From the IMG/VR virus record IMGVR_UViG_2740892112_000004, positions 1 to 10,733 of that record: 10,733 nt of DNA, one strand, 5' to 3'. This document shows positions 1-10,733 of the stretch, piece after piece. The notes below the pieces were generated by a model that had not been told where the DNA came from, ran no database searches, and saw only the letters and a list, made by a program, of their open reading frames with translations. How positions within the stretch are numbered: the stretch's first letter is position 1; every line of letters begins with the position of its first letter. The position numbers and the translations under genes are program-made. Source of the stretch: a virus. Taxonomy: Duplodnaviria > Heunggongvirae > Uroviricota > Caudoviricetes.

Positions 1-165
1 ATGGCAAAGCCGATCATCACGCTCAATGGCCTAAAAATCGTCATTATGTTGGGAATGCTGGTCATTATTCTCTGCGGTATCCGTTTTGCCGCCGAGATTA
101 TCGTGCCGTTTATTCTCGCATTATTTATTGCTGTTATATATAACTCATTTCACTTAACACATTGA
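1..165 (+). pseudogene. 5' fragment of a membrane-transporter gene (N-terminus resembles AI-2E family exporter TqsA/YdgG as I recall it); probable chromosome/element junction
   Basis: ATG at 1, 46 codons of strongly hydrophobic sequence ([46 protein letters not shown]), then the frame changes character (YNSFHLTH) and stops at 163-165. AT-rich non-coding DNA follows. Family assignment is from memory. Confidence 0.45.
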
Positions 166-211
166 TTTAATTAAATAATTTTCACTACAAAAAGTGCCAT
201 AAATCGCAAAA

Positions 212-233
212 TGACTACACCAGTGACTACACC
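212..233 (+). repeat. Tandem direct repeat TGACTACACC x2 (12-bp period); candidate integrase arm-type sites
   Basis: tgactacacc at 212-221 and again at 224-233, about 75-95 bp from the putative junction; a related tcactacaa lies at 182-190. Function is inferred only. Confidence 0.3.
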
Positions 234-342
234 GTTCGGTGCACTGTATGAAACAACGTGGAACAAATAGACACAAGAAATATACAGGCGGGTCATCTTT
301 CCAGGGGGAAGCGCGCTAATTCATGAGGGGCGTTAATGTTGA

Positions 343-358
343 TATGGGGATCCCCATA
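343..358. repeat. 16-bp perfect palindrome TATGGGGATCCCCATA
   Basis: Read directly. A second hairpin follows at 367-384 (ACCGGA, T6 loop, TCCGGT). Confidence 0.5.
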
Positions 359-550
359 ACGGGGCTACCGGATTTTTTTCCGGTTAACTGTTAATCAGGC
401 TGGTGGGCTTTACCTGTTTTGTAGGAGTGGTCATTATGACCATTCAGACAATGACCTTAATCAGAACTTTTCGCTAAAAAATGGCGTTGGTCACGTCGTC
501 CGGAAAGCACAAAATCCCGTCAATTTTTAATTAACGGTTAAACCGTCTTT

Positions 551-600
551 TGTCACGGCGTGTCACTGGTTGTCACTCTCCGTCACGGTATGTCGCTACT
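551..600 (+). repeat. Five head-to-tail 10-bp units each beginning (T/C)GTC(A/G)C; candidate protein-binding array
   Basis: tgtcacggcg / tgtcactggt / tgtcactctc / cgtcacggta / tgtcgctact at exactly 10-bp phasing, ending just before the stop codon of the 603-884 ORF. Confidence 0.5.
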
Positions 601-602
601 CG

Positions 603-884
603 TTAACGCCGTAACCGCTCCGGCTTCTTCCAGTGGTACGTAATTTTCTCCGTTTCCCGATACAGTGCCACGCGGCGATTGTAGGCCAGCATTTCAAGAA
701 CGCGGATCCGTATGTTGCGCATATCCACATCATTAAGCTGGATACCATCACGGCGCATCACCTCAGCAACCACACGCGCGTAATTTTCGGCGGTCACGCT
801 GTCCGGCTGCGTGGCCTGTTCGTCATGCTGCTGGCTGATTCCGGTAACGCGGCGGATTAATCCCAGTAGTTCGGCTTCTGTCAT
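603..884 (-). CDS. Hypothetical protein, 93 aa
   Basis: ORF with a GGGGG Shine-Dalgarno about 5 nt upstream of the ATG at 884. No family recognised. Confidence 0.5.
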   Translation of the reverse strand: MTEAELLGLIRRVTGISQQHDEQATQPDSVTAENYARVVAEVMRRDGIQLNDVDMRNIRIRVLEMLAYNRRVALYRETEKITYHWKKPERLRR

Positions 885-920
885 TGTGCCCCCATCGCTC
901 TGATAGTCTGGTGTCGTCGG

Positions 921-1115
921 GTCCTTCCTGGAATTATGGCCCGTTACGGGGCGGCGACCTCGCGGTTTTTATCTGTTTATGAAAATTTTTCTGGAAAAAG
1001 CATGTCGGTACTTCTCGAACATAACTATTTGTTTTTAAATAGATACACAATAAAAAGAAACGACACGGTAATCATCTAAAATGGCGATTTATGACGCTTT
1101 CATGTCGTTTCTCAG
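921..1115 (+). other. Lambda-type cos site, copy A: cosQ-like flank, cosN (GGGCGGCGACCT at 949-960), and a cosB with R3/I1/R2/R1-like layout
   Basis: ccgttacgGGGCGGCGACCTcgcggtttttatctgtttatgaaaatttttctgg matches my recollection of the lambda cohesive-end region. R-site-like motifs: catgtcggtacttctc (1001-1016) and catgtcgtttctc (1101-1113) direct, agaaacgacacg (1055-1066) inverted, with an AT-rich IHF-like stretch between. Confidence 0.8.
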
Positions 1116-1139
1116 TTTTGTTCAATAATTGCGCGTCTG

Positions 1140-1682
1140 TTACTCGCCTTTCTTCTGTAGCAACTTTTCCGGTACGTTTCCGGTTGTTTCTTTCAAGTAA
1201 TCAGCCAGTATCTGTGGGAGGTTGTCGGCAACTCTGGCACTGGCATTACAGGCTTTAACCACTTCCCTTTTAAGCCTATCCAGCATGGCGGGGGTAATCT
1301 GTGGGAAGCTCCTTTGCATAGTAAGCGGGAGGCTGTCCATGATTGATGAAATCTGACTCGCCAGCTTTGAAAGCGCGTACAGGCAAAACTCAGTATCAAT
1401 CACGTCACCGCGATCGCGCTCGTTTTTAAGTTCCTGCGCCTCCGCCTGTGCTGTCAGTAATCTGATCCTGACTCGTAAGAGTTCATCATCATCAATATCG
1501 CCTTTGTCGTTTGTAAGCTGGCTAATTGCATTGTTAACCCTATTGTCTATCACGCTGGCAACATCGTAAAACGCCTCACGGCCTTTACGTTCAACGGGAG
1601 TCACTCCCCACTTGTCGAACGCTGTCGCACTTACACGGCAGCTTTTCGCCATGTTTTTTTTGTTCATCAGGTGCGATTTCAT
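1140..1682 (-). CDS. Terminase small subunit, lambda Nu1-like (175-180 aa; start could be 1682 or the Met at 1667)
   Basis: Full-length resemblance to lambda Nu1 as I recall it. N-terminal NKK..A......V.....W............G.E..YD.A.VI and central/C-terminal LTAQAEAQELKNERD ... TEFCLYALSKLASQISSIMDSLPLTMQRSFP. Similar length (Nu1 is 181 aa). No clear SD at either candidate start. Confidence 0.8.
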   Translation of the reverse strand: MKSHLMNKKNMAKSCRVSATAFDKWGVTPVERKGREAFYDVASVIDNRVNNAISQLTNDKGDIDDDELLRVRIRLLTAQAEAQELKNERDRGDVIDTEFCLYALSKLASQISSIMDSLPLTMQRSFPQITPAMLDRLKREVVKACNASARVADNLPQILADYLKETTGNVPEKLLQKKGE

Positions 1683-1683
1683 T

Positions 1684-1721
1684 AATACACCAACTTAATT
1701 ACTGCTTCAGGTTGGTGTATT
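1684..1721. promoter_or_regulatory. 11-bp perfect inverted repeat (AATACACCAAC ... GTTGGTGTATT, 16-bp spacer) abutting the terS start codon
   Basis: Read directly; complementary arms at 1684-1694 and 1711-1721. Confidence 0.35.
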
Positions 1722-1789
1722 GTTTGCATCTTTCCCTTTTCATTCATAAAGATAGAGCAAACAACAAAACCACCACCCCCCTGAAAAGG

Positions 1790-1850
1790 CTCATAAATAG
1801 CGAAAAACCGCGAGGTCGCCGCCCCGTAACGGGTCCATATGCCGGAAAGG
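1790..1850 (-). other. Lambda-type cos site, copy B (inverted relative to copy A): cosQ-like flank plus cosN (minus-strand GGGCGGCGACCT = plus 1813-1824), no recognisable R sites
   Basis: Minus strand reads tatgggtcctttccggcatatggacccgttacgGGGCGGCGACCTcgcggtttttcgctatttatga. About 85% identical to copy A over roughly 70 bp. Sequence beyond that, toward terS, diverges and lacks GTCGTTTC-type motifs. Confidence 0.75.
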
Positions 1851-1856
1851 ACCCAT

Positions 1857-1880
1857 AAAAAAAAGCCGGATTTCTCCGGC
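1857..1880 (-). terminator. Intrinsic terminator after the capsid operon
   Basis: Minus strand: GCCGGA-GAAA-TCCGGC hairpin followed by T8, immediately after the stop of the 1887-2300 ORF. Confidence 0.6.
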
Positions 1881-1886
1881 CTTGTC

Positions 1887-2300
1887 TCAGATGGTTTTCA
1901 GTATGCGATCGATGTCGCCGTCATCGCCCTGGTTTCTGCCATCGTATGCCATGCCAGCTGATACGGCTTGCGGGCTGTGCATGTCCATAAAGTTTTCAAA
2001 GGCTGCAGTAAGTTCCGGCGCAACCTTCGGACGTTCCTGCTCTATGGTCATGCTAAGGATGCTTTTAGCCGTACCAACATCGATACAAGGCACGTTTGCC
2101 ATTGCACGTAACAGCGGCTGATAGTCGCCAGATTCATCAAGCGCCATAATCGCATCAGCGCGCGGCTTGTCCTGCTCTTCCAGTTTGTTTAGTTGATATA
2201 CGGCCTCATAGGTTGATAAACCTCTGTCAGCCATTGCCCGCGCTTCGGCTTTAAATTTACTCGCCAGCGGTAGCGTCATGATGCTTTCATTCGTTGCCAT
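1887..2300 (-). CDS. Hypothetical protein, 137 aa (possibly head or packaging accessory by position)
   Basis: ORF with AGGGGGAA SD 4-5 nt upstream of ATG at 2300; last gene of the capsid operon. No family recognised. Confidence 0.5.
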   Translation of the reverse strand: MATNESIMTLPLASKFKAEARAMADRGLSTYEAVYQLNKLEEQDKPRADAIMALDESGDYQPLLRAMANVPCIDVGTAKSILSMTIEQERPKVAPELTAAFENFMDMHSPQAVSAGMAYDGRNQGDDGDIDRILKTI

Positions 2301-2312
2301 CGTTCCCCCTGC

Positions 2313-2648
2313 TTATCGGGCCAGCGGCTGAACGGATACGCCAGAACCCGCAAAGGCGGCGCATTTTTTCGCATCGGTGTCGACGCTCTCAGGCCAGTTA
2401 ACGGCGGCAATATTGAATATCCCCGTCTTGTAACACTGTGCTGATTTCTGCTTTGACGTGTCCACAGGGTACGAGGTCAGATAAACAGCCTTGCCAGATT
2501 CCTTACCATCCCACGGCTTAAACTCGCCATTGTCCGCCAGCATCAGCGGGGTAAATTCCTGAATAACGCCAGCATCAGCGGCAAAATGTACCAGCGTCGT
2601 GGCGACCTGCTGACTGCCTGCAAATAACTCAATGTATGGAGTGTCCAT
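2313..2648 (-). CDS. Head decoration protein, lambda gpD-like (111 aa)
   Basis: Motifs matching my recollection of lambda gpD: TPLMLAD, WDG, CYKTGIF, WPESVDTDAKKCAAFAGSGVSV (lambda: [38 protein letters not shown]). Similar length. GGGGGA SD. Confidence 0.75.
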   Translation of the reverse strand: MDTPYIELFAGSQQVATTLVHFAADAGVIQEFTPLMLADNGEFKPWDGKESGKAVYLTSYPVDTSKQKSAQCYKTGIFNIAAVNWPESVDTDAKKCAAFAGSGVSVQPLAR

Positions 2649-2659
2649 AGAATCCCCCG

Positions 2660-3715
2660 TTAACCAATTTTGACGGTAACAAATTTACGAATATCTGCCG
2701 GAACCGGCTGCGGTGCGCTGTGCGTCTGCACGTACTCAATCGCCGGATCGCCGTCCCCAATCCAGTTTTTCGGGTAAAACATGTTTTGCGTTGCGCCCGT
2801 TCTTACTGCGTCCTGATCCATAATCGCACCATAGGCCACCAGCCCTTTATTGTTGGTGTTGCCCAGAACCAGCAAATCAGGCTCAAGGAAATATTTTTCT
2901 GTGCCGTCGCTGTCAGTGTATTTGCCGGAATAGACGATAAGGGCAATATCGCCCAGATAGCCTTTAAAGCTCACCACTTCGCCCAGGTTTTTACAGGCCA
3001 GTTCGGCGGCGGACTCTGAACCACGGGAAAGATCGTACAGCTCACGGAATTTTTTAAAGCTGCGTAACGTGCGCCATACCTCAGCGCCCATAATCATGAC
3101 GTTTGCGGGGCAACCAGCCTGATCAGCATAAAGCTCGATGTCATAGATTGGGTCGTGCATGTCTTTATCCTGCTCGGACCATTTTTTACCCTTGGCCTGC
3201 TCTATGATGCAGTTTTCCGGTATTTTCCAGTCGATTTCATAGCGTTCTATGCCTTCGCCCTCAATGATGTTTTTTCCGGTCGTTATCGCATTCACCGCCA
3301 GCCATTCCACGCGCGCTTTAATGGCGTTTACCTGGCGGCGCATGTTGCCAGTAATCAGGCGCATACGGCGGTAGGTAGGGTCGTTAAGCTGTGCCGGATC
3401 TTCTCCAGCCATGCGCATGATGGTTTTCGTTGGATCGATTTCGTGCTTTGGCTTCATGTAGCCAGGTTTAATTGTGCTGGTTTCGTACCCTTTATCGCGC
3501 TGTACCTGGCTGCCAACCATAGGCGAACAAAACGCCGACATGGTGACTTCTTCAATGTCCAGGGTATCCAGCATGATGTTTTGCGTGCTGAATGTCGCCA
3601 CGTTCGGGAAAAACAGCGTAGTAAACAGAGGGTTGAATTTAAAATCCGCAATATCCCCGCGATTCAGGTACATGAAAAGCTGGTTAGTGTTAAGTGCCGT
3701 TGCTTTGCCTGTCAT
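2660..3715 (-). CDS. Major capsid protein, lambda gpE-like (351 aa)
   Basis: Collinear similarity to lambda gpE as I recall it: FKFNPLF..LFF, PGYMKPKHEIDP, DPTYRRMRLI, VSFKGYLGDIALIVYSGKY, LVLGNT, YPKNW..GDPA, SAP. GGGGGTGA SD. Start overlaps the upstream stop (TAATG). Confidence 0.8.
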   Translation of the reverse strand: MTGKATALNTNQLFMYLNRGDIADFKFNPLFTTLFFPNVATFSTQNIMLDTLDIEEVTMSAFCSPMVGSQVQRDKGYETSTIKPGYMKPKHEIDPTKTIMRMAGEDPAQLNDPTYRRMRLITGNMRRQVNAIKARVEWLAVNAITTGKNIIEGEGIERYEIDWKIPENCIIEQAKGKKWSEQDKDMHDPIYDIELYADQAGCPANVMIMGAEVWRTLRSFKKFRELYDLSRGSESAAELACKNLGEVVSFKGYLGDIALIVYSGKYTDSDGTEKYFLEPDLLVLGNTNNKGLVAYGAIMDQDAVRTGATQNMFYPKNWIGDGDPAIEYVQTHSAPQPVPADIRKFVTVKIG

Positions 3716-3921
3716 TATTCACCCCCGTGAACCTGATTCATACCCAGCGCCGCGCGTAAATAGGCGCGTACCTGCCAGCCTGTTGACGGCTCAACCATCG
3801 CCAGCGGATCAAGTCCTGCCGCAATGCCTGCTTTTACGTTCTGCTGGTGGCGTTCCTTGAGCGCCTTCACGATGTCGGGGCTGATGTACACCGAAACACC
3901 GCCTTTTTTCTCTTCAGCCAT
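3715..3921 (-). CDS. Hypothetical protein, 68 aa, first gene of the capsid operon
   Basis: ORF with AGAGGAA SD; stop overlaps the capsid gene start, suggesting translational coupling. No family recognised. Confidence 0.5.
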   Translation of the reverse strand: MAEEKKGGVSVYISPDIVKALKERHQQNVKAGIAAGLDPLAMVEPSTGWQVRAYLRAALGMNQVHGGE

Positions 3922-3944
3922 AGTAAGAAATTCCTCTTTGACTT

Positions 3945-3980
3945 AAAAAATCATAACTGGATGTTCATCCAGTTATGATT
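3945..3980 (-). terminator. 32-bp palindrome (15-bp perfect arms, 2-bp spacer, 3949-3980) followed on the minus strand by a U-run; terminator/attenuator or operator
   Basis: aatcataactggatg tt catccagttatgatt read directly; the minus-strand hairpin is followed by about 6 T. Confidence 0.45.
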
Positions 3981-4086
3981 ATAATCATGATTGCATTTTG
4001 TGCAATGATATTGAGTTGCGTTGCAAATTATGAAATGATTATCCCGATCATGTGTGTCAGTGCACCAAAAAACCTCATATGCAAAA

Positions 4087-4125
4087 GCCCGATAAGATGC
4101 CTCCTGTACTTATCGGGCTTTTTTT
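4087..4125 (+). terminator. Intrinsic terminator (stronger on the plus strand)
   Basis: GCCCGATAAG, 12-nt loop, CTTATCGGGC, then T7 at 4119-4125. Confidence 0.5.
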
Positions 4126-4131
4126 GGGTAC

Positions 4132-4153
4132 AAAAAAGCCGGATTACTCCGGC
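4132..4153 (-). terminator. Intrinsic terminator immediately after the perC-like gene
   Basis: Minus strand: GCCGGA-GTAA-TCCGGC followed by T6, starting 7 nt after the stop at 4160-4162. Confidence 0.6.
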
Positions 4154-4159
4154 TGTTGA

Positions 4160-4432
4160 TTAGCTGTCTGGGTAATTACGCCATATTTCATCGCTTACAC
4201 CATCTATACCCATTTCAGCATAAGTGCGATCTACTGCCTTTCTCAGGTCTCCGAAGTTATCCGGCGGCTCCGGTGGCTTCTGTGCCTTCCTGGAACATTC
4301 CAGCCGTCGCATCGTAACCTGATGCCGTTCCTTGTCTGTCTCCACCAGCAGCATGACTTCACCCCATCGCGCCGATGCCCTCCGGTAAAAGCCTTTTGCC
4401 TCGAGTTCCTCCGCTATGCGGTCATGTACCAT
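4160..4432 (-). CDS. PerC-family transcriptional regulator-like protein (90 aa; start at internal Met 4432 of the 4160-4552 ORF)
   Basis: MVHDRIAEELEAKGFYRRASARWGEVM fits the PerC-family N-terminal pattern as I recall it. GGGGGTGA SD 4 nt upstream of the 4432 ATG, which lies directly after the ssb stop; the longer ORF would overlap ssb by 110 nt. Confidence 0.5.
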   Translation of the reverse strand: MVHDRIAEELEAKGFYRRASARWGEVMLLVETDKERHQVTMRRLECSRKAQKPPEPPDNFGDLRKAVDRTYAEMGIDGVSDEIWRNYPDS

Positions 4433-4442
4433 CGTCACCCCC

Positions 4443-4853
4443 TCAGAACGGAATATCATCACCGTAGGGGTCATCGTCTCCCGCTGGTGGCTGATTACCC
4501 TGTGTGCCTGTGGTTTTGCGTCTGTTCCCGCCAGGACGTGCCGCACGGGCACTGATTACGCTGTCTGCAATAACCTGATAACCCTGCCGCGTTTCCCCGT
4601 TCTGTCCGGTCCACTGGCTGACCTGCATCGTGCCGGATACGCTGGCAACGTCGCCTTTTTGATGTTTAGCCAGGAAGTCGGCCTGCTTACCAAATGCGAT
4701 GACCGATAGCCATAACGTAGCCTGCCCATCCTGCGCCTGACTACATGGCAACGATACCGCCATACGTGCCAGCGTCATTGGTGTGCCCTTGCTGGTCTGT
4801 TTTACCTGCGGGTCGTCCACCAGCCGCCCGTAAGCTGCTATCTGTGCTGTCAT
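4443..4853 (-). CDS. ssb: Single-stranded DNA-binding protein (136 aa)
   Basis: OB-fold SSB pattern with the hallmark acidic C-terminal tip DDDPYGDDIPF. GGAGAGGTGG SD. ATGA start/stop overlap with the upstream gene. Confidence 0.85.
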   Translation of the reverse strand: MTAQIAAYGRLVDDPQVKQTSKGTPMTLARMAVSLPCSQAQDGQATLWLSVIAFGKQADFLAKHQKGDVASVSGTMQVSQWTGQNGETRQGYQVIADSVISARAARPGGNRRKTTGTQGNQPPAGDDDPYGDDIPF

Positions 4854-5101
4854 GATTCCACCTCTCCGGTTTTAACGTTGATGGTTGTCACCTGTTCAGC
4901 TTCCGCAATCTCCCGCTCTGTCAGCGTGGCAAAATTTGCCGCCGTCGTGGTCATGAATGCGCTTATCAGTTCGGGATGTGCTTTCGCGTATCCTTCCCCC
5001 GCGTGGCGGTCTATCGTTCTGATTGCCACCTTTAAGGCGTGCTCTGTCATGTCTAACGCTTTATATTTTGGCTCTGTTCTGTCTCTGTGTTTTTGAGTCA
5101 T
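4850..5101 (-). CDS. Hypothetical protein, 83 aa (start at internal Met 5101 of the 4850-5233 ORF)
   Basis: GAGGTGG SD before the 5101 ATG. The N-terminal extension of the longer ORF is a translation of the iteron repeats and is probably not coding. Confidence 0.45.
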   Translation of the reverse strand: MTQKHRDRTEPKYKALDMTEHALKVAIRTIDRHAGEGYAKAHPELISAFMTTTAANFATLTEREIAEAEQVTTINVKTGEVES

Positions 5102-5102
5102 T

Positions 5103-5306
5103 TGCCCACCTCTACCCACTTTTTTCGCCCACTTTTTACGTTTTCCCACTTCGTCCAACGTGGGAAATTTGGGATTTATATCATCTTGTTTCATAGGTAT
5201 TTTTTTAGTGCCCACTTTTTGGGATATATACACGTGGGAAAGTGGGTAATTTTGTTAAAATTCCGTTAAATCACCCACCTTTCCCACTTTTAATGCCCAC
5301 TTTTTA
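5103..5306. repeat. Iteron array, putative replication origin: at least 8 direct and 3 inverted copies of (G)CCCAC(TTTTT) with AT-rich spacers
   Basis: Direct copies near 5104, 5115, 5128, 5145, 5211, 5274, 5283, 5296; inverted GTGGGAAA/GTGGGTAA near 5160, 5234, 5242. Lies immediately 3' of the helicase gene. Confidence 0.6.
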
Positions 5307-6701
5307 CAGTGGTCCTACATCATCACCGTCAATGTAGATCACGTCGTCTTTTTCCAGTTTGGCTAACCATCGTTTAAGGTGTTTTGTGTCATACCCCAGC
5401 TTTTTCATATCGTCACGTAACAGCGGGATCGTGCACTTGTCGCCGTGCTGTGTGCGTGAACGTATGCATCCCCATAGCGCGGTATGGTTTTCCGTCTTGT
5501 TGCCTGCCTCCTCGATGCGCTCCAGTTCAACGGGAGGGCGCGGCTTATCCACCACCACCAGCGACGTGATTAACTCCCCGTCAGCGTCGGTAAAAAGCTC
5601 CACCACGCGTAAGTCATATGCGGCTTCTTTGAGTTCCTCCGCGTCCTTCATTTTGGTGCATGAGATAACCAGCGCTTCGCTTCCTGCGTCCTCCCTGCGT
5701 ATCCGGTATTCAGCATCCAGCGAAGCACGAAATGCACTGGAACCGCGCGCGCCTTTCGTCTCATCCTTGCCGGAATGGTGAACCACCAGCACCGTGGCCC
5801 CTGTGCGTCGTTTCAGTTCGTCACAACCACGGATAAACGCCCCCATATCACGGGAATCATTTTCATCATTACCACCAAAGCAACGCGCCAGCGTATCCAG
5901 AATAATCATGCGAACAGGTTTACCCGTTTCCCTCTCCACCTGACGGGCAGCGATAACCATTTCATCAACATCAAGCGGGACCGCCGGAAAGATGGGACGG
6001 TTTACCAGATACAGATTTTTCACCTGCTCACCGTGCACAACCTCCCAGGCTTTTACACGACGCGGAACGCCGATACCGCCTTCACCAACCACATAGAGAA
6101 CAGCGCCATGCGCCACCCTGCGGCCTCCCCACTGACGGCCCGTGGAAACGTGACACGCCCACGAACCCGCAAGGAATGATTTATAGGAACCGCTTGCCCC
6201 GTATATGCTGCATAGCGACGATGCCGGAATAATCCCCTTTACCACGTAATCTAATTGCGTGTCGTATCCGGCAGATCCAACGCTCATCGGTAGCGTGGTT
6301 TTTCGCTGGTGGTGTTCTTCCCCTGGCTTTTTCCCCCGCTCCCGTTCCAGATATTCGCGCCAGTTCTCCCGCTTCTGGCCGTGTATCCCTTCGGGGTAAT
6401 AATTCGCATCAGTTACGCCCGCCGCCGCCAGCTTGTGCGCAATGGCATTAATATTTGATGGCCTGATGTGGCCTGCCTTGTACAGCCGGACACAATAGCG
6501 CCCCTCGTCGATGATTCTCAGGTCTGCCAGTTCATCCAGTTGATCATCAGCCAGCACAATGGGAGGCACATTATCGCCAGCCAGTCGCCCGTCCTGTTCC
6601 TGCCACTGTTTCGCATGTGCCCACGCATCACTACCCGCAAAAATGATGACTTCGGTCATCTTGTCGTAAGGCTGTTTTTTTAAGTTCGGTGCGCTTTTCA
6701 T
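5304..6701 (-). CDS. Replication initiator/helicase, RepA-like (AAA_25-type RecA-fold ATPase), 465 aa
   Basis: Walker A-like GASGSYKS, Walker B-like RMIILDTLARCF, VLVVHHSGK motif typical of RepA/DnaB-like helicases. C-terminal about 80 aa could be a DNA-binding domain (inference). AGGGG SD. ATGA overlap with the upstream ORF. Confidence 0.75.
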   Translation of the reverse strand: MKSAPNLKKQPYDKMTEVIIFAGSDAWAHAKQWQEQDGRLAGDNVPPIVLADDQLDELADLRIIDEGRYCVRLYKAGHIRPSNINAIAHKLAAAGVTDANYYPEGIHGQKRENWREYLERERGKKPGEEHHQRKTTLPMSVGSAGYDTQLDYVVKGIIPASSLCSIYGASGSYKSFLAGSWACHVSTGRQWGGRRVAHGAVLYVVGEGGIGVPRRVKAWEVVHGEQVKNLYLVNRPIFPAVPLDVDEMVIAARQVERETGKPVRMIILDTLARCFGGNDENDSRDMGAFIRGCDELKRRTGATVLVVHHSGKDETKGARGSSAFRASLDAEYRIRREDAGSEALVISCTKMKDAEELKEAAYDLRVVELFTDADGELITSLVVVDKPRPPVELERIEEAGNKTENHTALWGCIRSRTQHGDKCTIPLLRDDMKKLGYDTKHLKRWLAKLEKDDVIYIDGDDVGPL

Positions 6702-6997
6702 TTCTTGCCCCTGAATCCGTTAATCATGGTTTTCAGCTTCTGGATGTTTGCCCGTGCCCTGGCGTTGCTGGTGGGCACGTTATGCGGCGCGGTCTGTACC
6801 AGAGAAAAATCACGCCGGAACTGATAAACAGGCATCACGCAATCATATTCGTAACCTTCACGGCGGTAAGTTACGCACCGTCCCGCCACGCCCTTAATCA
6901 TTACCGTGCCGCCGTACTGGTCGCGGTAAATATCACCGCGCATAAATTTAGGGTGAGTGTTGCCACTGGCAGTTAAGCCAGAATATTTAAGTTTCAT
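6698..6997 (-). CDS. Hypothetical protein, 99 aa
   Basis: ORF translationally coupled to the helicase gene (ATGA overlap); GGAGAA SD. No family recognised. Confidence 0.5.
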   Translation of the reverse strand: MKLKYSGLTASGNTHPKFMRGDIYRDQYGGTVMIKGVAGRCVTYRREGYEYDCVMPVYQFRRDFSLVQTAPHNVPTSNARARANIQKLKTMINGFRGKK

Positions 6998-7002
6998 TAT
7001 TT

Positions 7003-7236
7003 TTATTCTCCGGTGTGCTGTTCGTTATATCTGTCGTGCAATGTCTCTATTTCCTGCAACTCATTTATTACAGGCTCAAGAAGCGTTATTAATGATGTAA
7101 TAATCCGCGTTTTTTTTGCATTACGTTCATTATCGCCAAAGGATTCAAGGCACATCCGCAATATTTCGTACATACCTTCAGCGTAAGCAAGGGCACTAAA
7201 TGCGCGGTCTATTGTTTCAAGATAAATATCACGCAT
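7003..7236 (-). CDS. Hypothetical protein, 77 aa, net acidic
   Basis: ORF starting ATGCGTGAT (MRD), overlapping the upstream stop by 8 nt; GAGGA SD. Confidence 0.45.
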   Translation of the reverse strand: MRDIYLETIDRAFSALAYAEGMYEILRMCLESFGDNERNAKKTRIITSLITLLEPVINELQEIETLHDRYNEQHTGE

Positions 7237-7462
7237 GGCTTACATCCTCAGGAAATTTTCTTCTGTAACGCGCCTCTGCCACATATTCCGCATAATCGGC
7301 GGCGATATTCAGTACATCAAGTCCCGTTGATTTATATTCTTTCGTGGAAAGTAAGAAAAAAGCCGCTCTAATAAGTTCTGGCATTGACGAAAGCGCATCA
7401 GCCGCATCATCAGGAACGCCGGAAAATTCCTGTTTCAGGGAATTAAAACGATCATCACGCAT
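7229..7462 (-). CDS. Hypothetical protein, about 77 aa (start uncertain: Met at 7462 with poly-G SD, or 7489)
   Basis: ORF 7229-7489. The internal ATGCGTGAT start at 7462 overlaps the upstream stop by 8 nt and follows a G8 run on the minus strand. Confidence 0.4.
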   Translation of the reverse strand: MRDDRFNSLKQEFSGVPDDAADALSSMPELIRAAFFLLSTKEYKSTGLDVLNIAADYAEYVAEARYRRKFPEDVSHA

Positions 7463-7694
7463 AACCCCCCCCATTTTCACAATCAGCAATCAGGATAGCT
7501 TTGGCCTCATTCAGCGCCGTATCAGCACTAAATTGCATGACAGCCAGTGAGTGAGGAACGAAAGCACCGGCATATTCTGTTTCGCTGGTGGCGTGCTTAT
7601 GTGCCCTGTCCGCGATAACAGAAATATCAATCAGCGCGTGCATCAGCGTTTTGATGGCTTCGGCGGCTGCGTCCGGTGTGGTTTTATTGTGCAT
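7455..7694 (-). CDS. Hypothetical protein, 79 aa
   Basis: ORF with AGGGGA SD 7 nt upstream of ATG at 7694. The C-terminal GGG codons lie in the C8/G8 tract. Confidence 0.45.
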   Translation of the reverse strand: MHNKTTPDAAAEAIKTLMHALIDISVIADRAHKHATSETEYAGAFVPHSLAVMQFSADTALNEAKAILIADCENGGGYA

Positions 7695-7896
7695 AAAGCA
7701 TCCCCTGAATATTCGTGTTAATCATTCCGGCACGTTTTGTGATTTCCTGTAATGATTCCCTTGTGGCGACAATTGCTTCATCTGGTAAGTGGTAATTACA
7801 CACCACGCGACCTTTATCCACATTGACCAGTAGCTGCCCTGTGAATTTCTCACGAAACTGAATGCGGTTAAGGTCAGTAAGTGACAGATTAATCAT
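7684..7896 (-). CDS. Hypothetical protein, 70 aa (start at internal Met 7896 of the 7684-7938 ORF)
   Basis: Very good AGGAGGT SD 6 nt upstream of the 7896 ATG. Confidence 0.5.
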   Translation of the reverse strand: MINLSLTDLNRIQFREKFTGQLLVNVDKGRVVCNYHLPDEAIVATRESLQEITKRAGMINTNIQGMLYAQ

Positions 7897-8086
7897 GGCG
7901 CACCTCCTGACGAATACGGGCGGCAAATACAGCAACACAACCGGACGGGCAACGGTTACGCGCTTCGCGTTCCGTCCAGGCGGTTACGTGGATGATTTGA
8001 GATTCTCCGGCACTCAGTGCCAGAAAACGCCACACAAAGGCCGTTTGTGTGTGTACAAGGTGTGGTATATGATTTACAGCAACCAT
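7889..8086 (-). CDS. Hypothetical protein, 65 aa, first ORF of the long operon (start at internal Met 8086 of the 7889-8161 ORF)
   Basis: TAGGAG SD 6 nt upstream of the 8086 ATG; downstream of the predicted promoter and leader hairpin. Confidence 0.45.
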   Translation of the reverse strand: MVAVNHIPHLVHTQTAFVWRFLALSAGESQIIHVTAWTEREARNRCPSGCVAVFAARIRQEVRHD

Positions 8087-8117
8087 AACGGCTCCTAGTT
8101 TACGTTGTTGGTTAGAA

Positions 8118-8158
8118 GCCCTGCGAGTGGTAACGACACTTGCGGGGCTTTGTCTTTT
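8118..8158 (+). terminator. Strong 12-bp stem-loop; plus-strand terminator-like (followed by TTTGTCTTTT) and also a 5'-leader hairpin of the minus-strand operon transcript
   Basis: GCCCTGCGAGTG, 7-nt loop, CACTTGCGGGGC (two G-U pairs as RNA), T-rich tract on the plus strand. Confidence 0.35.
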
Positions 8159-8179
8159 CATCGATTACCTTGATAAAGG

Positions 8180-8259
8180 TGTCAGCCACTATATTAGTAA
8201 CGGGTGTCAGCCACGTCAATAGTGTTTTTCCGTTTTCTTGTGTGTATACTGTCAGCCAC
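8180..8259. promoter_or_regulatory. Three direct repeats (G)GTGTCAGCCAC; candidate operator sites in a divergent promoter region
   Basis: TGTCAGCCAC at 8180-8189, 8205-8214 and 8250-8259. The first overlaps the predicted minus-strand transcription start, the second sits in the promoter spacer, the third lies just downstream of a plus-strand TATACT (8245-8250). Confidence 0.5.
8191..8219 (-). promoter_or_regulatory. Sigma70-like promoter for the long minus-strand operon (-35 TTGACG, 17-bp spacer, -10 TAATAT)
   Basis: Minus strand reads TTGACG (plus 8214-8219), a 17-nt spacer, then TAATAT (plus 8191-8196). Predicted start near 8184. Confidence 0.5.
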
Positions 8260-8280
8260 CTAATAACGAGGAAATCAGAT

Positions 8281-8460
8281 ATGGCAACAAAAGCAGTTAA
8301 TGCAAAATCCAAAAAGCTTGAGGCTCGAGTACCACACGCAATAGCTGATGCTGTAGAAAATTTAAAGGAAGATGGCGAAAGTACAGGGCAATTTATCGTT
8401 TCGGCACTTGAAGGCGAGATCAAACGCCGCCAGCGCCGCAAGGCCAAAGAATCAGAATAA
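8281..8460 (+). CDS. Small putative DNA-binding protein, ribbon-helix-helix-like (59 aa; start at internal Met of the 8140-8460 ORF)
   Basis: GAGGAAA SD upstream of ATG 8281. KKLEARVPHAIADAVENL...GESTGQFIVSALEGEI resembles a beta-strand/helix/turn/helix RHH pattern; basic C-terminal tail. Fold assignment is tentative. Confidence 0.45.
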   Translation: MATKAVNAKSKKLEARVPHAIADAVENLKEDGESTGQFIVSALEGEIKRRQRRKAKESE

Positions 8461-8517
8461 TCACTATCAGCGCCGTGGTGTGAGGTATTACGGCGCATTG
8501 CTATGCAGGACAACACA

Positions 8518-8691
8518 ATGACCGATAAAGAATTGACCAAAACATTATCACCGGCACGGAAAAGACGGCGCAGAAAGATAGAGCATGAATCAGAAAGATT
8601 CGCGTCATGTGCTTTTGCCCTTGAGCAATTCCTTAAAGAGTACAGGGAAAAGCGCTCATTGCAGGTATGGCAACGAACTGAACCAGACTGA
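8518..8691 (+). CDS. Hypothetical small basic protein (57 aa; start at 8518, or 8503)
   Basis: AGGA SD 7 nt upstream of ATG 8518. Contains an ARKRRRRK tract. Followed by the terminator at 8787-8814. Confidence 0.4.
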   Translation: MTDKELTKTLSPARKRRRRKIEHESERFASCAFALEQFLKEYREKRSLQVWQRTEPD

Positions 8692-8786
8692 TTGCATTGC
8701 CCACCAGCCTGATAGCGGCTATCATCCCCGTGCTTATGTTTGGGATCACACACACAAACGGCGCAGCGGGTTATCTGTTCAGAAAG

Positions 8787-8814
8787 GCGGCTCCATTTCG
8801 GGGCCGCTTTTTTT
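8787..8814 (+). terminator. Rho-independent terminator ending the plus-strand two-gene module
   Basis: 8-bp GC-rich stem (GCGGCTCC / GGGGCCGC, one G-U), 5-nt loop, then T7 at 8808-8814. Confidence 0.7.
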
Positions 8815-8960
8815 ATACCTGAAAAACCCCAATTTTGTTGTTTTTCAGTTTCACCAGGGCGAACGAATCCCCGCCCACGTTCTGGCGTATATTCAATCTT
8901 CATGGTTATAGCTCTGTGTTCAGATGATTGATGTGTGGCGGCTGCGTGCCGCCAGCGTGA

Positions 8961-9149
8961 TTAATGAACTGCCTTGCAGCTATCCTTCCAGGCCAGAACC
9001 TCGGATAAAGACCAGCCAACGGAACGACCGCCAAGTTTACGACGTGATGGGAATTGTCCGGCCTTTTCCAGGCGGTAGCGACACGTACGGCTAAGGCCGG
9101 TTAGTTTTTCGCATTCTTTTTCACGTATAAACCGATCAGTGCTTAACAC
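8961..9149 (-). CDS. alpA: AlpA-family DNA-binding protein (prophage CP4-57-type regulator/excisionase-like), 62 aa
   Basis: Helix-turn-helix pattern typical of AlpA/Vis proteins (LTGLSRTCRYRLEKAGQFPSRRKLGGRSVGWSLSEVLAW). AAGGGGGGG SD. Lies immediately downstream of int on the same strand. Confidence 0.8.
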   Translation of the reverse strand: MLSTDRFIREKECEKLTGLSRTCRYRLEKAGQFPSRRKLGGRSVGWSLSEVLAWKDSCKAVH

Positions 9150-9482
9150 TATTGCCCCCCCTTTCGTTTCTTAAAGAGTCATCAGGTGTCTTATTGTGTC
9201 GTATTGTTCCCGCTAGAGTGATGAATGGCAAATATTGAGGATGTATGATTTACAGAAAATGAAACAGTAAGAATAAAATCTTTTAAATTCATGTTAATAC
9301 AAAGGCATAAAATATTGTTTCATGCCTTTTTTCTCGCTCTTTAAAGAGTGATTCGCTAGTGTATAAAAAACCAGTGACACATTAAAAATCAGCCACTTAT
9401 AAATCTGTATGCTTTTTCGCCTCTTGTTCGTGGTTGTTCCACATTGTTGCTCATTGTTGCACGTTGTATCTGTTCGCATATA

Positions 9483-9498
9483 CAGTATGCGCATACTG
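9483..9498. repeat. 16-bp perfect palindrome CAGTATGCGCATACTG between int and alpA
   Basis: Read directly; 18 bp downstream of the int stop codon. Confidence 0.5.
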
Positions 9499-9515
9499 AA
9501 AAAACACGAAAAAAA

Positions 9516-10733
9516 TTATTTTCTTCTGGCTACTGGTAGCGTGGTTACGTTTTCATGTGTTCCCGCCAGTATCCCTAACCGCTCCGTCCACATATCCAGC
9601 GCATTGCGTTTAGCATCCAGATAACGGGAATGATTATAAACTCGCTGCATTCCTGGCATCTGGTGGCCTGTAAGCTGCTCCACGACATGCGGATCAACGC
9701 CTAAATCGTTCAGCATGGTTGTAAAGGTGCGCCGGATGTCATGCAGTGACCAGTGAGGATGATTAAGCCTCCTGTGCGCTAATCTTCCATACTGCGATAC
9801 GCTGGCCTCCTGTTTCACTTCCCCCAGCAATAAGCCCGTGTGCCTGTTCTGCTCCACCAGCTGCGTGACGAACGGCAGGATCGCTTCCGGTATGGGCCGG
9901 AATATTGCGACCTTCGTTTTGCTGTGCTCCTTCGGAACGGTCCATAGCATTTCCGTAAAATCCCACTCCCCGATCTCCGATAACCTCAGTTCTACCGTTC
10001 TGGCTCCGAAGACAATCAGGAGGCGGATTAACGCGACGTAGTAAGGGGAGAATATTTTTTTGTCCAGTGCCTGCAATAATTCGCCAAGTTCTTTGTTACT
10101 TAAGACACGTTCGCTTATATCCGGTTTTTTCCCAACGTCCGCCACGTTCAGATCGTCCAGAACGTTGCTGATTGCATAGCGCCGCCTACGGCAGAACTTA
10201 AGCGCCTGTTTGCACGCCTGTAGCACGAATCCGGCAGTAACAGGCGTTCGCTTTGCCACCTGGTCAAAACAGGCCAGCCAGTGCCGTAGCTCGCATTTAT
10301 CCAGCGGCATAGCACCAATCTGCTGTATTACGTGATTATTAAGTCGCCTTTTCAGGGCGATATAATCCACGCGGTTTTCCTTTACGTAATACTCAAGCCA
10401 GTAGGTGAGCGCATCGCCAACCGTTACCGGCTTTAACGCTTCCTGTACGGTGTAATTAAGCTCATGACGTGGATTTTTCCCCTCTGCCAGCCATGCGCGA
10501 CACTGGGCGGCTTTTTCCCTGGCTGATTTCAGGCTCAGATCAGGATAACTTCCCAGCTTAATGCGTTCGGGTCGTGTCTCCCTTCCCGTTCCGGCCCTGT
10601 ATGTGAAATACCAGGTCAATTTCCCTGATGTTAAATATTTCACGCTCAGGTTTCCGCCATCACTATAAAACGTGTTTTTCTCCGCTGGCTTACCATGAAG
10701 TTTCCTTAGCAAGGTATCGCTCAGTTTGTTCAT
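9516..10733 (-). CDS. int: Tyrosine site-specific integrase, P4-type (405 aa)
   Basis: N-terminal arm-binding-type region (DGGNLSVKYLTSGKLTWYFTYR). Catalytic-domain pattern with conserved Arg (FGARTVELRLSE), His/Arg box (WSLHDIRRTF) and C-terminal Tyr region (RVYNHSRY). ATG is the last three bases of the window on the minus strand. Confidence 0.9.
   Translation of the reverse strand: MNKLSDTLLRKLHGKPAEKNTFYSDGGNLSVKYLTSGKLTWYFTYRAGTGRETRPERIKLGSYPDLSLKSAREKAAQCRAWLAEGKNPRHELNYTVQEALKPVTVGDALTYWLEYYVKENRVDYIALKRRLNNHVIQQIGAMPLDKCELRHWLACFDQVAKRTPVTAGFVLQACKQALKFCRRRRYAISNVLDDLNVADVGKKPDISERVLSNKELGELLQALDKKIFSPYYVALIRLLIVFGARTVELRLSEIGEWDFTEMLWTVPKEHSKTKVAIFRPIPEAILPFVTQLVEQNRHTGLLLGEVKQEASVSQYGRLAHRRLNHPHWSLHDIRRTFTTMLNDLGVDPHVVEQLTGHQMPGMQRVYNHSRYLDAKRNALDMWTERLGILAGTHENVTTLPVARRK

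Follow-up and report, generated by a model that had tools for sequence, protein, structure and literature searches.

The stretch of DNA analysed here (10,733 nt, hereafter the window) in all likelihood consists of the left attachment site (attL) and nearly the whole body of a phage-inducible chromosomal island (PICI) of about 10.8 kb, which belongs to the EcCIO42/EcCICFT073 family and was inserted by its integrase (Int) into tqsA. A PICI in tqsA with the core ATAACAGCA/TGCTGTTAT is already published, and the new part is comparative: judged from the sequences, the doubled-motif architecture of the att arms, reported to be unique to helper-embedded PICIs, is shared by classical E. coli PICIs.

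EcCI042 (FN554766.1 1832521-1843554, 11 kb) is listed in Table S1 of Fillol-Salom et al. 2018 (PMC6092414) with the core ATAACAGCA and tqsA as att gene, and EcCIK1516 appears in the same table with the same core and gene (PMC6092414). Bobay et al. 2013 counted tqsA among the core genes disrupted by prophage integration (PMC3603311), and Mageeney et al. 2020 named it a new candidate for regulated gene integrity, with islands of 11, 15 and 16 kb at this gene (Eco33.11.tqsA and others; PMC7192596). The doubled motif tgTGTATTGCantgTGTATTGCa was described in helper-embedded PICIs by Mageeney et al. 2023, in co-oriented copies at 81 +/- 2 and 132 +/- 2 bp; the arm domains of an Int tetramer or AlpA were proposed as the binder, and the motif was stated to be absent from other PICIs (PMC10111431).

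Features of the window

Features are given below with coordinates, strand and, in brackets, their basis; L005 is a locus of genome GCA_964048795.1, from which the right attachment site (attR) was read.

1..128, plus strand: host DNA preceding the att identity block, codons 1-43 of tqsA (K-12 identity, AI-2E model)
1..165, plus strand: chimeric ORF of 54 codons, 46 from TqsA and 8 from the element, and a stop (translation, RefSeq pseudogene)
129-137, plus strand: attL identity block (core) TGCTGTTAT (common to attL, attR and attB)
136..144, plus strand: candidate core-type integrase half-site C', ATATATAAC, directly right of the overlap (attP alignment)
212..233, plus strand: doubled motif of 12-bp period, TGACTACACC-AG-TGACTACACC, candidate arm-type pair of the int-distal arm (exact tandem)
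246..266, plus strand: GAAACAA / GGAACAA pair with 10-bp spacing, adjoining the doubled motif (speculative site for a second protein)
138..10733, genes on the minus strand: PICI body (Pfam, EcCIO42 identity, gene list of L005)
8961..9149, minus strand: AlpA-family HTH protein, 62 aa (PF05930 Phage_AlpA on the L005 product of equal length; HTH regulator in RefSeq)
9516..10733, minus strand: tyrosine integrase of P4/CP4 type, 405 aa from the ATG at 10733 (PF13356, PF22022 weakly, PF00589)

Gene content of the island

The island carried on its minus strand int, alpA, an Icd-like gene and genes for a RepA-type helicase, SSB and PerC, as well as genes for a lambda gpE-like capsid protein, a gpD-like decoration protein and a Nu1-like small terminase/Rpp-like protein. 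The gpE-like, gpD-like and Nu1-like products were the only structural or packaging matches (Pfam, ten largest ORFs), and RefSeq annotation of relatives agreed. Following the criteria of Fillol-Salom 2018 for Gram-negative PICIs, the element was of appropriate size (about 10.8 kb, in a range of about 8-15 kb), encoded int, alpA, a RepA-type helicase (AAA_25) and SSB in one transcription direction, lacked phage lysis and tail genes while holding few capsid/packaging homologues, and occupied a specific att site not used by prophages. No integrase of more than 60% identity was found in 50,697 phage records. Two lambda-like cosQ-cosN sites were present in the island, which would be a satellite of lambda-like cos phages; in EcCICFT073, cos1 is required for transfer (PMC6739421). 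Phased repeats were also seen at 550-600, and a lambda cosN search aimed at them located the two known cos sites instead.

The original prediction of a P4-type integrase was borne out by the domain content of Int, which comprised Arm-DNA-bind_3 (PF13356, DUF4102; residues 4-91, E = 1.3e-18) and Phage_integrase (PF00589; residues 210-371, E = 3e-16). A PDB sequence search matched the N-terminal domain only, to the 'CP4-like integrase' 3jtz. Candidate catalytic residues in the expected order R..H-x-x-R..H..Y, namely R245 (GARTVEL), H331/R334 (LHDIRRT), H357 (TGHQ) and Y366 (RVYNH), were read directly off the sequence. Int was 100% identical in amino acids to that of strain 042 and 92% identical to the Int of the O157 phoQ-site island. 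The AlpA-family protein is likely an excision/activation factor, and an uncharacterised ORF of 66 aa sits between alpA and int.

Interruption of tqsA

The island interrupted the 5' coding region of tqsA (also named ydgG; the gene of the AI-2 exporter), as the original prediction had proposed for a TqsA-like transporter gene. Positions 1-137 of the window were the 5' end of E. coli tqsA, 99.27% identical to K-12 (L002 2914-3050), and the uninterrupted gene was found in 5,171 of the 5,423 E. coli genomes with a match. The TqsA-like N-terminus thus held, while the predicted end of host sequence at 138 had to be moved by one base, since similarity to tqsA ends at 137. The anticipated loss of frame followed immediately: past base 137, codon 46 became ATA (Ile kept), then came 8 foreign codons (YNSFHLTH) and a TAA at 163-165, which is codon 55. 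Residues 1-49 of the 54-aa product matched the AI-2E transporter model of NCBIfam (E = 1.9e-21). The equivalent stretch in strain 042 is annotated in RefSeq as a partial 'pheromone autoinducer 2 transporter' pseudogene without C-terminus, and both tqsA pieces of that strain are marked partial.

The 54-codon ORF is thus a gene remnant and no gene of the element. The alternative, that the element encodes a true small membrane protein here, has next to no chance of being right: the frame is open and starts with ATG, and its product is hydrophobic, but the first 137 nt are host tqsA, present in 5,423 of 5,426 E. coli genomes, the element contributes 8 codons only, and related islands at other sites do not have the ORF. 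The host tqsA matches across E. coli genomes refuted this reading.

An RNA gene as the true target was rejected as well, with no tRNA, tmRNA or Rfam RNA found by ARAGORN and Rfam either in the window or in a 6-kb K-12 stretch containing the intact tqsA and its attB. Integrases of the P4/CP4 type typically, though not obligatorily, insert into tRNA or tmRNA genes at their 3' end; the target here was instead codons 43-46 of tqsA. A protein-coding target is atypical for P4-type integrases in general, and the original remark to that effect stands at this level. It does not stand for the PICI family, whose sites are mostly other than tRNA genes (PMC6092414 Table S1).

The insertion divides tqsA in two: a stub of 46 codons that reads on for 8 codons into the element, and a remainder, lacking its 5' part, that adjoins int. 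The part cut off, the first 46 codons, corresponds to the hydrophobic N-terminus. Since the element carries no replacement for it, the integrated island very probably leaves tqsA inactive, as read from the sequence; the gene was also flagged by the TIGER domain-disruption test (PMC7192596). A shortened TqsA may be made from an in-frame GTG or ATG (codons 51 and 54).

Attachment sites and crossover core

The integrase lay at the opposite end of the window, and the partner att site had been predicted beyond 10733. The window ends at the ATG of the integrase and therefore does not contain attR, which was read from L005, differing from the window by two adjacent bases (8604-8605). The site was located there as predicted: a second copy of TGCTGTTAT was found at 10921-10929 of the extended sequence, about 187-188 bp past the window end, and a second TGACTACACC-AG-TGACTACACC at 10771-10792, with its end 37 nt upstream of the int ATG. 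TGCTGTTAT is the reverse complement of the published EcCI042 core ATAACAGCA, and strain 042 had the same att arrangement. When positions 1-137 of the window were joined in silico to the sequence following the attR core, an uninterrupted TqsA of 344 aa was obtained, one residue different from K-12. At attR, only 9 bp of identity were shared and an in-frame TGA TAA stood directly upstream of the core, so the element gives no replacement 5' end and fuses no ORF to the tqsA remainder.

The attP was reconstructed and compared with those of islands at phoQ-ycfD (O157 TW14359, L003) and cspD-clpS (IHE3034, L004). Both arms were conserved among the three attPs, and a cassette of about 30 bp at the crossover differed. 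The three-way alignment gave the pattern GATAAAW, 7 nt, WTWTATMWC, as follows.

tqsA attP: left half-site GATAAAA, central TGCTGTT, right half-site ATATATAAC
phoQ attP: left half-site GATAAAA, central TATGTCC, right half-site TTTTATCAC
cspD attP: left half-site GATAAAT, central AACTATC, right half-site ATTTATATC

The attP cores look like inverted core-type half-sites flanking a 7-bp overlap, the candidate C' ATATATAAC aligning with TTTTATCAC and ATTTATATC as inverted partners of GATAAAW. From this alignment, the strand-exchange overlap of the tqsA type was inferred to be TGCTGTT at 129-135, which takes in codons 44 and 45 of tqsA together with the final base of codon 43. The right half-sites of the attBs were similar (tqsA ATTCTTAAC, phoQ ATACTTCAC), a likeness that would fit two integrases 92% identical with different targets.

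Distribution of the insertion in E. coli

Islands in tqsA were found in about 4.5% of complete E. coli genomes, roughly 1 in 22, when 200-bp queries were run against 5,426 such genomes. Counts per query were:

K-12 probe with the site in its middle, matched without a break: 5,171 of the 5,423 genomes that matched
K-12 probe, site split in two: about 252 genomes
tqsA joined to the left arm of the element (attL): 246 genomes
right arm of the element joined to tqsA (attR): 247 genomes

With element arms at 246-247 of about 252 split sites, nearly every interruption was made by the int/att module of this element. Occupied hosts were diverse, including O157:H7, O55:H7, O103:H2, O121, strain 042 and avian isolates, and the junction was common to islands of unequal size (that of strain 042 measures about 11 kb and that of PCN033 about 15.1 kb). 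Frequency, host diversity and varied island sizes together indicate that tqsA is a dedicated primary site and no accident.

Two other explanations of the occupied site were weighed against these counts. The first, a fixed and decaying remnant in a dead tqsA pseudogene, without active site-specific recombination, draws on the pseudogene fragments of RefSeq but is very unlikely. Both halves of tqsA were undecayed and rejoined into a full-length ORF, int was intact with the RxxE..HxxR..H..Y pattern, and both att arms were conserved. The same junction was moreover found in about 246 genomes of very different serotypes and in islands of different size, with 95% of genomes empty, and mobility has been shown experimentally for the close relative EcCICFT073 (PMC6092414, PMC6739421). 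This explanation was rejected on the intact halves, int and arms and on the wide distribution. The second, a secondary-site event of an integrase that targets phoQ-ycfD, could appeal to the 92% identity of the integrases and to nearly identical att arms, and is more improbable still. The tqsA-type attP has its own core cassette of about 30 bp, with TGCTGTTAT replacing AAATATGTCC, the junction was identical in 246-247 genomes, and TIGER found a tight integrase clade for tqsA; it was rejected on these grounds. Dedicated integration at tqsA was retained.

Doubled motifs in the att arms

The int-distal arm of the window contained the tandem repeat of the original prediction, with exact copies of TGACTACACC at 212-221 and 224-233, 74 nt past the junction; further exact copies were absent from the window. 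The window had 2 places with exact 10-mer tandems of 10-13 nt period, whereas shuffled versions of it had 0.06 on average, and among 300 shuffles 15 contained at least one. The doubled motif is not a chance occurrence, because the second att arm and related elements carry it too. No earlier description turned up when a collection of papers was searched literally for the doubled-motif strings.

Motif pairs were arranged in a fixed geometry around the core. The two pairs were co-oriented, at 80 bp (int-distal) and 132 bp (int-proximal) from the centre of the overlap; counted from the first base of the core, the motifs begin at about -149/-137 and +84/+96 in the tqsA, phoQ and cspD types. The same geometry was found in phoQ-, cspD- and rcnR-type PICIs. 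The motif was thus in both arms, at a fixed distance from the core and conserved among relatives, as is expected of arm sites. A doubled motif of 12-bp period lay 21-65 nt upstream of int in 7 of 7 E. coli PICI lineages compared (6 insertion sites) and in one S. flexneri relative, with lineage-specific sequences (GGTGTAGTCACT, GGTGTAGTTAAT, TGTGTGGTCAGT, GGTGTACATAAT, GTTTAGTTATAC). A scan of genome contigs with Int gave one locus, a phoQ-type S. flexneri island whose distal arm was outside the stretch analysed; further relatives were taken from accessions of the published PICI table.

From the 132/80 spacing alone, the published cores of the tqsA, phoQ, cspD and rcnR (frmR-thiM) types were predicted to within 1 bp; for the yejM type the spacing pointed to the 3' end of tRNA-Pro. 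For the yicC-type island, no clean identity block was found at the predicted offset; the longest identity run was elsewhere, and the target had a GAGCAGAT repeat of its own. A clean core was not found for DI14, where an IS110 copy flanks or disrupts the island.

Candidate proteins binding the arms

The doubled motifs are probably arm-type Int sites. The predicted role fitted the behaviour of the repeat in the sequences compared (both arms, conserved geometry, apparent covariation with the Int N-domain). Four half-sites in two pairs would bind the N-terminal arm domains of an integrase tetramer and so assemble the recombination complex.

Motif sequence tracked a segment of the Int N-domain and not AlpA across 7 lineages, a small sample confounded by phylogeny. 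Between the tqsA and phoQ types, AlpA was 100% identical while motifs differed, along with the Int segments (VKY-LTSGKL vs VRH-STSGLL); 17 of the 31 differences between these integrases fell within residues 2-62. Conversely, cspD and phoQ types shared the Int N-domain segment with AlpA only 63% identical, and the phoQ-type unit GGTGTAGTTAAT was found in 3 of 4 cspD half-sites, both distal ones included. cspD and rcnR types differed in motifs with AlpA 86% identical. The covariation argument is soft, because half-sites vary inside single elements, where TGAC and TAAC coexist.

Binding of the doubled TGACTACACC motif by AlpA (as excisionase/activator) or by another DNA-binding protein, in place of the Int arm domain, is the main competing explanation and an unlikely one. 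In its favour, P4-like elements have proteins of the AlpA family that work at att sites. For the corresponding motif of helper-embedded PICIs, Mageeney 2023 kept AlpA as an optional binder (PMC10111431). The comparisons above speak against it, with AlpA unchanged (tqsA/phoQ) or little changed (cspD/rcnR) despite differing motifs, and well diverged (cspD/phoQ) where most half-sites match. The four co-oriented half-sites moreover fit an Int tetramer, and the doubled motif occurred nowhere else in the element, including the alpA-proximal promoter region.

A separate motif, (G/C)AACAA, is a better candidate for AlpA, because it is present in the arms and upstream of alpA. Pairs of it were found in the reconstructed attP at -101/-91, -38/-28 and +122/+132, and a phased array lay just upstream of alpA. 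The GAAACAA / GGAACAA pair next to the doubled motif might, speculatively, be a site for AlpA/excisionase or a host bending factor. Enrichment of GRAACAA over the whole window was weak (8 found against 4 expected, a count reached by 5 of 200 shuffles), and the motif is for this reason only a weaker candidate for an accessory-protein site. Arm-type Int sites were kept as the preferred reading of the doubled motifs.

Relation to known elements

EcCIO42 (EcCI042) and EcCIK1516 have the same target, tqsA, and the same att core as the window element. EcCIO42 of strain 042 matched 93% of the window at 95.7% nucleotide identity; gene order was the same and Int 100% identical. The two differed at about 995-1784 of the window, where the window has a Nu1-like gene of 180 aa between the cos sites, as do islands of the O157/CFT073 type; the window element is therefore a mosaic variant and not the identical element.

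Islands of the EcCICFT073/EcCIRM12579 type, at phoQ-ycfD(roxA), were about 93.6% identical over 94% of the window, with 92% identity in Int. Their att arms were near-identical to those of the window element, motif positions were the same, and both have two lambda-like cos sites. They differ in the core cassette (AAATATGTCC), the half-site (TAACTACACC) and the diverged Int N-domain, and their core overlaps the phoQ stop codon, so that the phoQ reading frame stays full.

Helper-embedded PICIs (PMC10111431) have a tandem, co-oriented motif of 12-bp period like that of the window element, at about 81/132 bp compared with 80/132 bp. The motif itself differs (tgTGTATTGCan in helper-embedded PICIs, ggTGTAGTCAct in the window element), as do its core (TGTATTGC and TGTAGTCA, respectively) and the target, a prophage late gene in the former and the chromosomal tqsA in the latter. 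Given the motif core TGTAGTCA and the chromosomal target, the window element is not a helper-embedded PICI.

Similarities with lambda-type attP and with P4/CP4 integrases were seen as well. The window Int has arm-binding, core-binding and catalytic domains, and the candidate arm sites are, as in lambda-type attP, repeated in both arms away from a short core. A small HTH protein of AlpA/Vis-like type is encoded on the strand of int, two genes away from it. The arm sites of lambda are P1, P2 and P'1-3, a layout that differs from the two symmetric pairs of the window element, whose target is also a protein-coding gene and not a tRNA.

The insertion resembles those of regulated-gene-integrity elements (comK, mlrA, sigK), which, as at tqsA, interrupt a gene and do not restore it, the break being one that precise excision would mend. 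The coding sequence of tqsA was disrupted with no replacement supplied by attP, and precise excision would restore the gene. The tqsA island differs in that only the first 46 codons are removed and in that use as a regulatory switch is only a candidate role.

Biological meaning

The window provides a mapped example of a satellite in a conserved quorum-sensing exporter gene, in about 1 of 22 complete E. coli genomes. A reversible on/off switch of TqsA, made of island integration and helper-induced excision and for which the tqsA site was selected, seems rather improbable; if real, it would tie quorum-sensing and biofilm behaviour to the induction of phages.

The fixed 80/132-bp scaffold may let this integrase family change target by swapping a core cassette of about 30 bp, and the position of the motif alone was enough to locate the crossover core in the tqsA, phoQ, cspD and rcnR types. 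The comparison also suggests that some 'att cores' of the original PICI table (EcCIDI14, yejM group) are really arm repeats; for islands of the yejM group, the insertion site appears to be a tRNA-Pro gene, at its 3' end. Both the shared architecture and the suggested reassignment of cores would help the automated mapping of satellites and the retargeting of integrases.

Arm motifs and target genes

In the islands compared, the doubled motif is a tandem of 12-bp period taken as a pair of candidate Int arm sites. A 60-aa hypothetical ORF, annotated by RefSeq and by the gene caller, lies wholly inside the int-proximal att arm, running from the int start toward tqsA and ending in TGA TAA before the core. 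It spans the doubled motif of this arm and is probably spurious.

L001 24975-25157, equivalent to 5787-5969 of L005 (GCA_964048795.1, an island copy 2 nt different from the window): 60-aa hypothetical ORF
L010 750-771 and 11366-11387: doubled arm motif of EcCIDI14
L007 752-773 and 12009-12030: doubled arm motif of the yejM group

Att site cores were given as CGGTGTAGTTAATGGTGTAGTTAATT for EcCIDI14 and TTTGTAGTTATACGTTTGTAGTTATACGG for the yejM-group PICIs (Table S1, PMC6092414). Comparison of the sequences suggests that both are doubled candidate arm motifs, not crossover cores. Placed 132 bp from the int-side motif, the predicted crossover of EcCIATCC25922 falls at the 3' end of a tRNA-Pro gene (L007 543-619).

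The phoQ-type core AAATATGTCC (2970-2980 of L003, from O157 TW14359) overlaps the phoQ stop codon (TAA, 2970-2972), so that phoQ is not truncated when this sister island integrates, whereas the tqsA-type island disrupts its own target.

Repeats, palindromes and putative origin

Window 343-358: perfect 16-bp palindrome TATGGGGATCCCCATA, conserved distal att arm
Window 366-388: short hairpin CCGGA-TTTTTTT-CCGG, after the palindrome in the same conserved arm
Window 550-600: five (T/C)GTC(A/G)C copies at exact 10-bp spacing (tgtcacggcg tgtcactggt tgtcactctc cgtcacggta tgtcgct)
Window 5115-5137: exact tandem CCCACTTTTT, 13-bp period
Window 9421-9475 (minus-strand reading): six (G/C)AACA(A/G) units arrayed in phase, ~10 bp apart

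The palindrome and the hairpin were both also found in the O157 island, which carries unrelated sequence in place of window region 426-601. The 550-600 repeats begin directly downstream of the stop codon of a 93-aa ORF (603-884, minus strand). The (G/C)AACA(A/G) array directly follows the int stop codon, lies upstream of alpA, and may serve AlpA or a different regulator as an operator or a set of binding sites; its unit is also paired in both att arms. The helicase gene (minus strand, 5304-6701) has the CCCACTTTTT tandem directly on its 3' side. This tandem probably represents origin iterons, since the PICI replication origin was located at that position (Fillol-Salom 2018, PMC6092414).

Packaging cassette between inverted cos sites

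918-982, plus strand: lambda-like cosQ-cosN segment (~65 bp), exact GGGCGGCGACCT at 949-960
1791-1854, minus strand: second copy (~65 bp), exact GGGCGGCGACCT at 1813-1824

These two copies are inverted and face each other across a Nu1-like gene (1140-1682, minus strand), and the islands of O157 and strain 042 carry this pair too. The sole large block unaligned to EcCIO42 of strain 042 was the sequence between the cos sites (~995-1784), which aligns instead to O157/CFT073-type islands. By these alignments, the window is a tqsA-type int/att module combined with a CFT073-type packaging cassette, a combination suggesting that packaging cassettes are swapped between inverted cos repeats.
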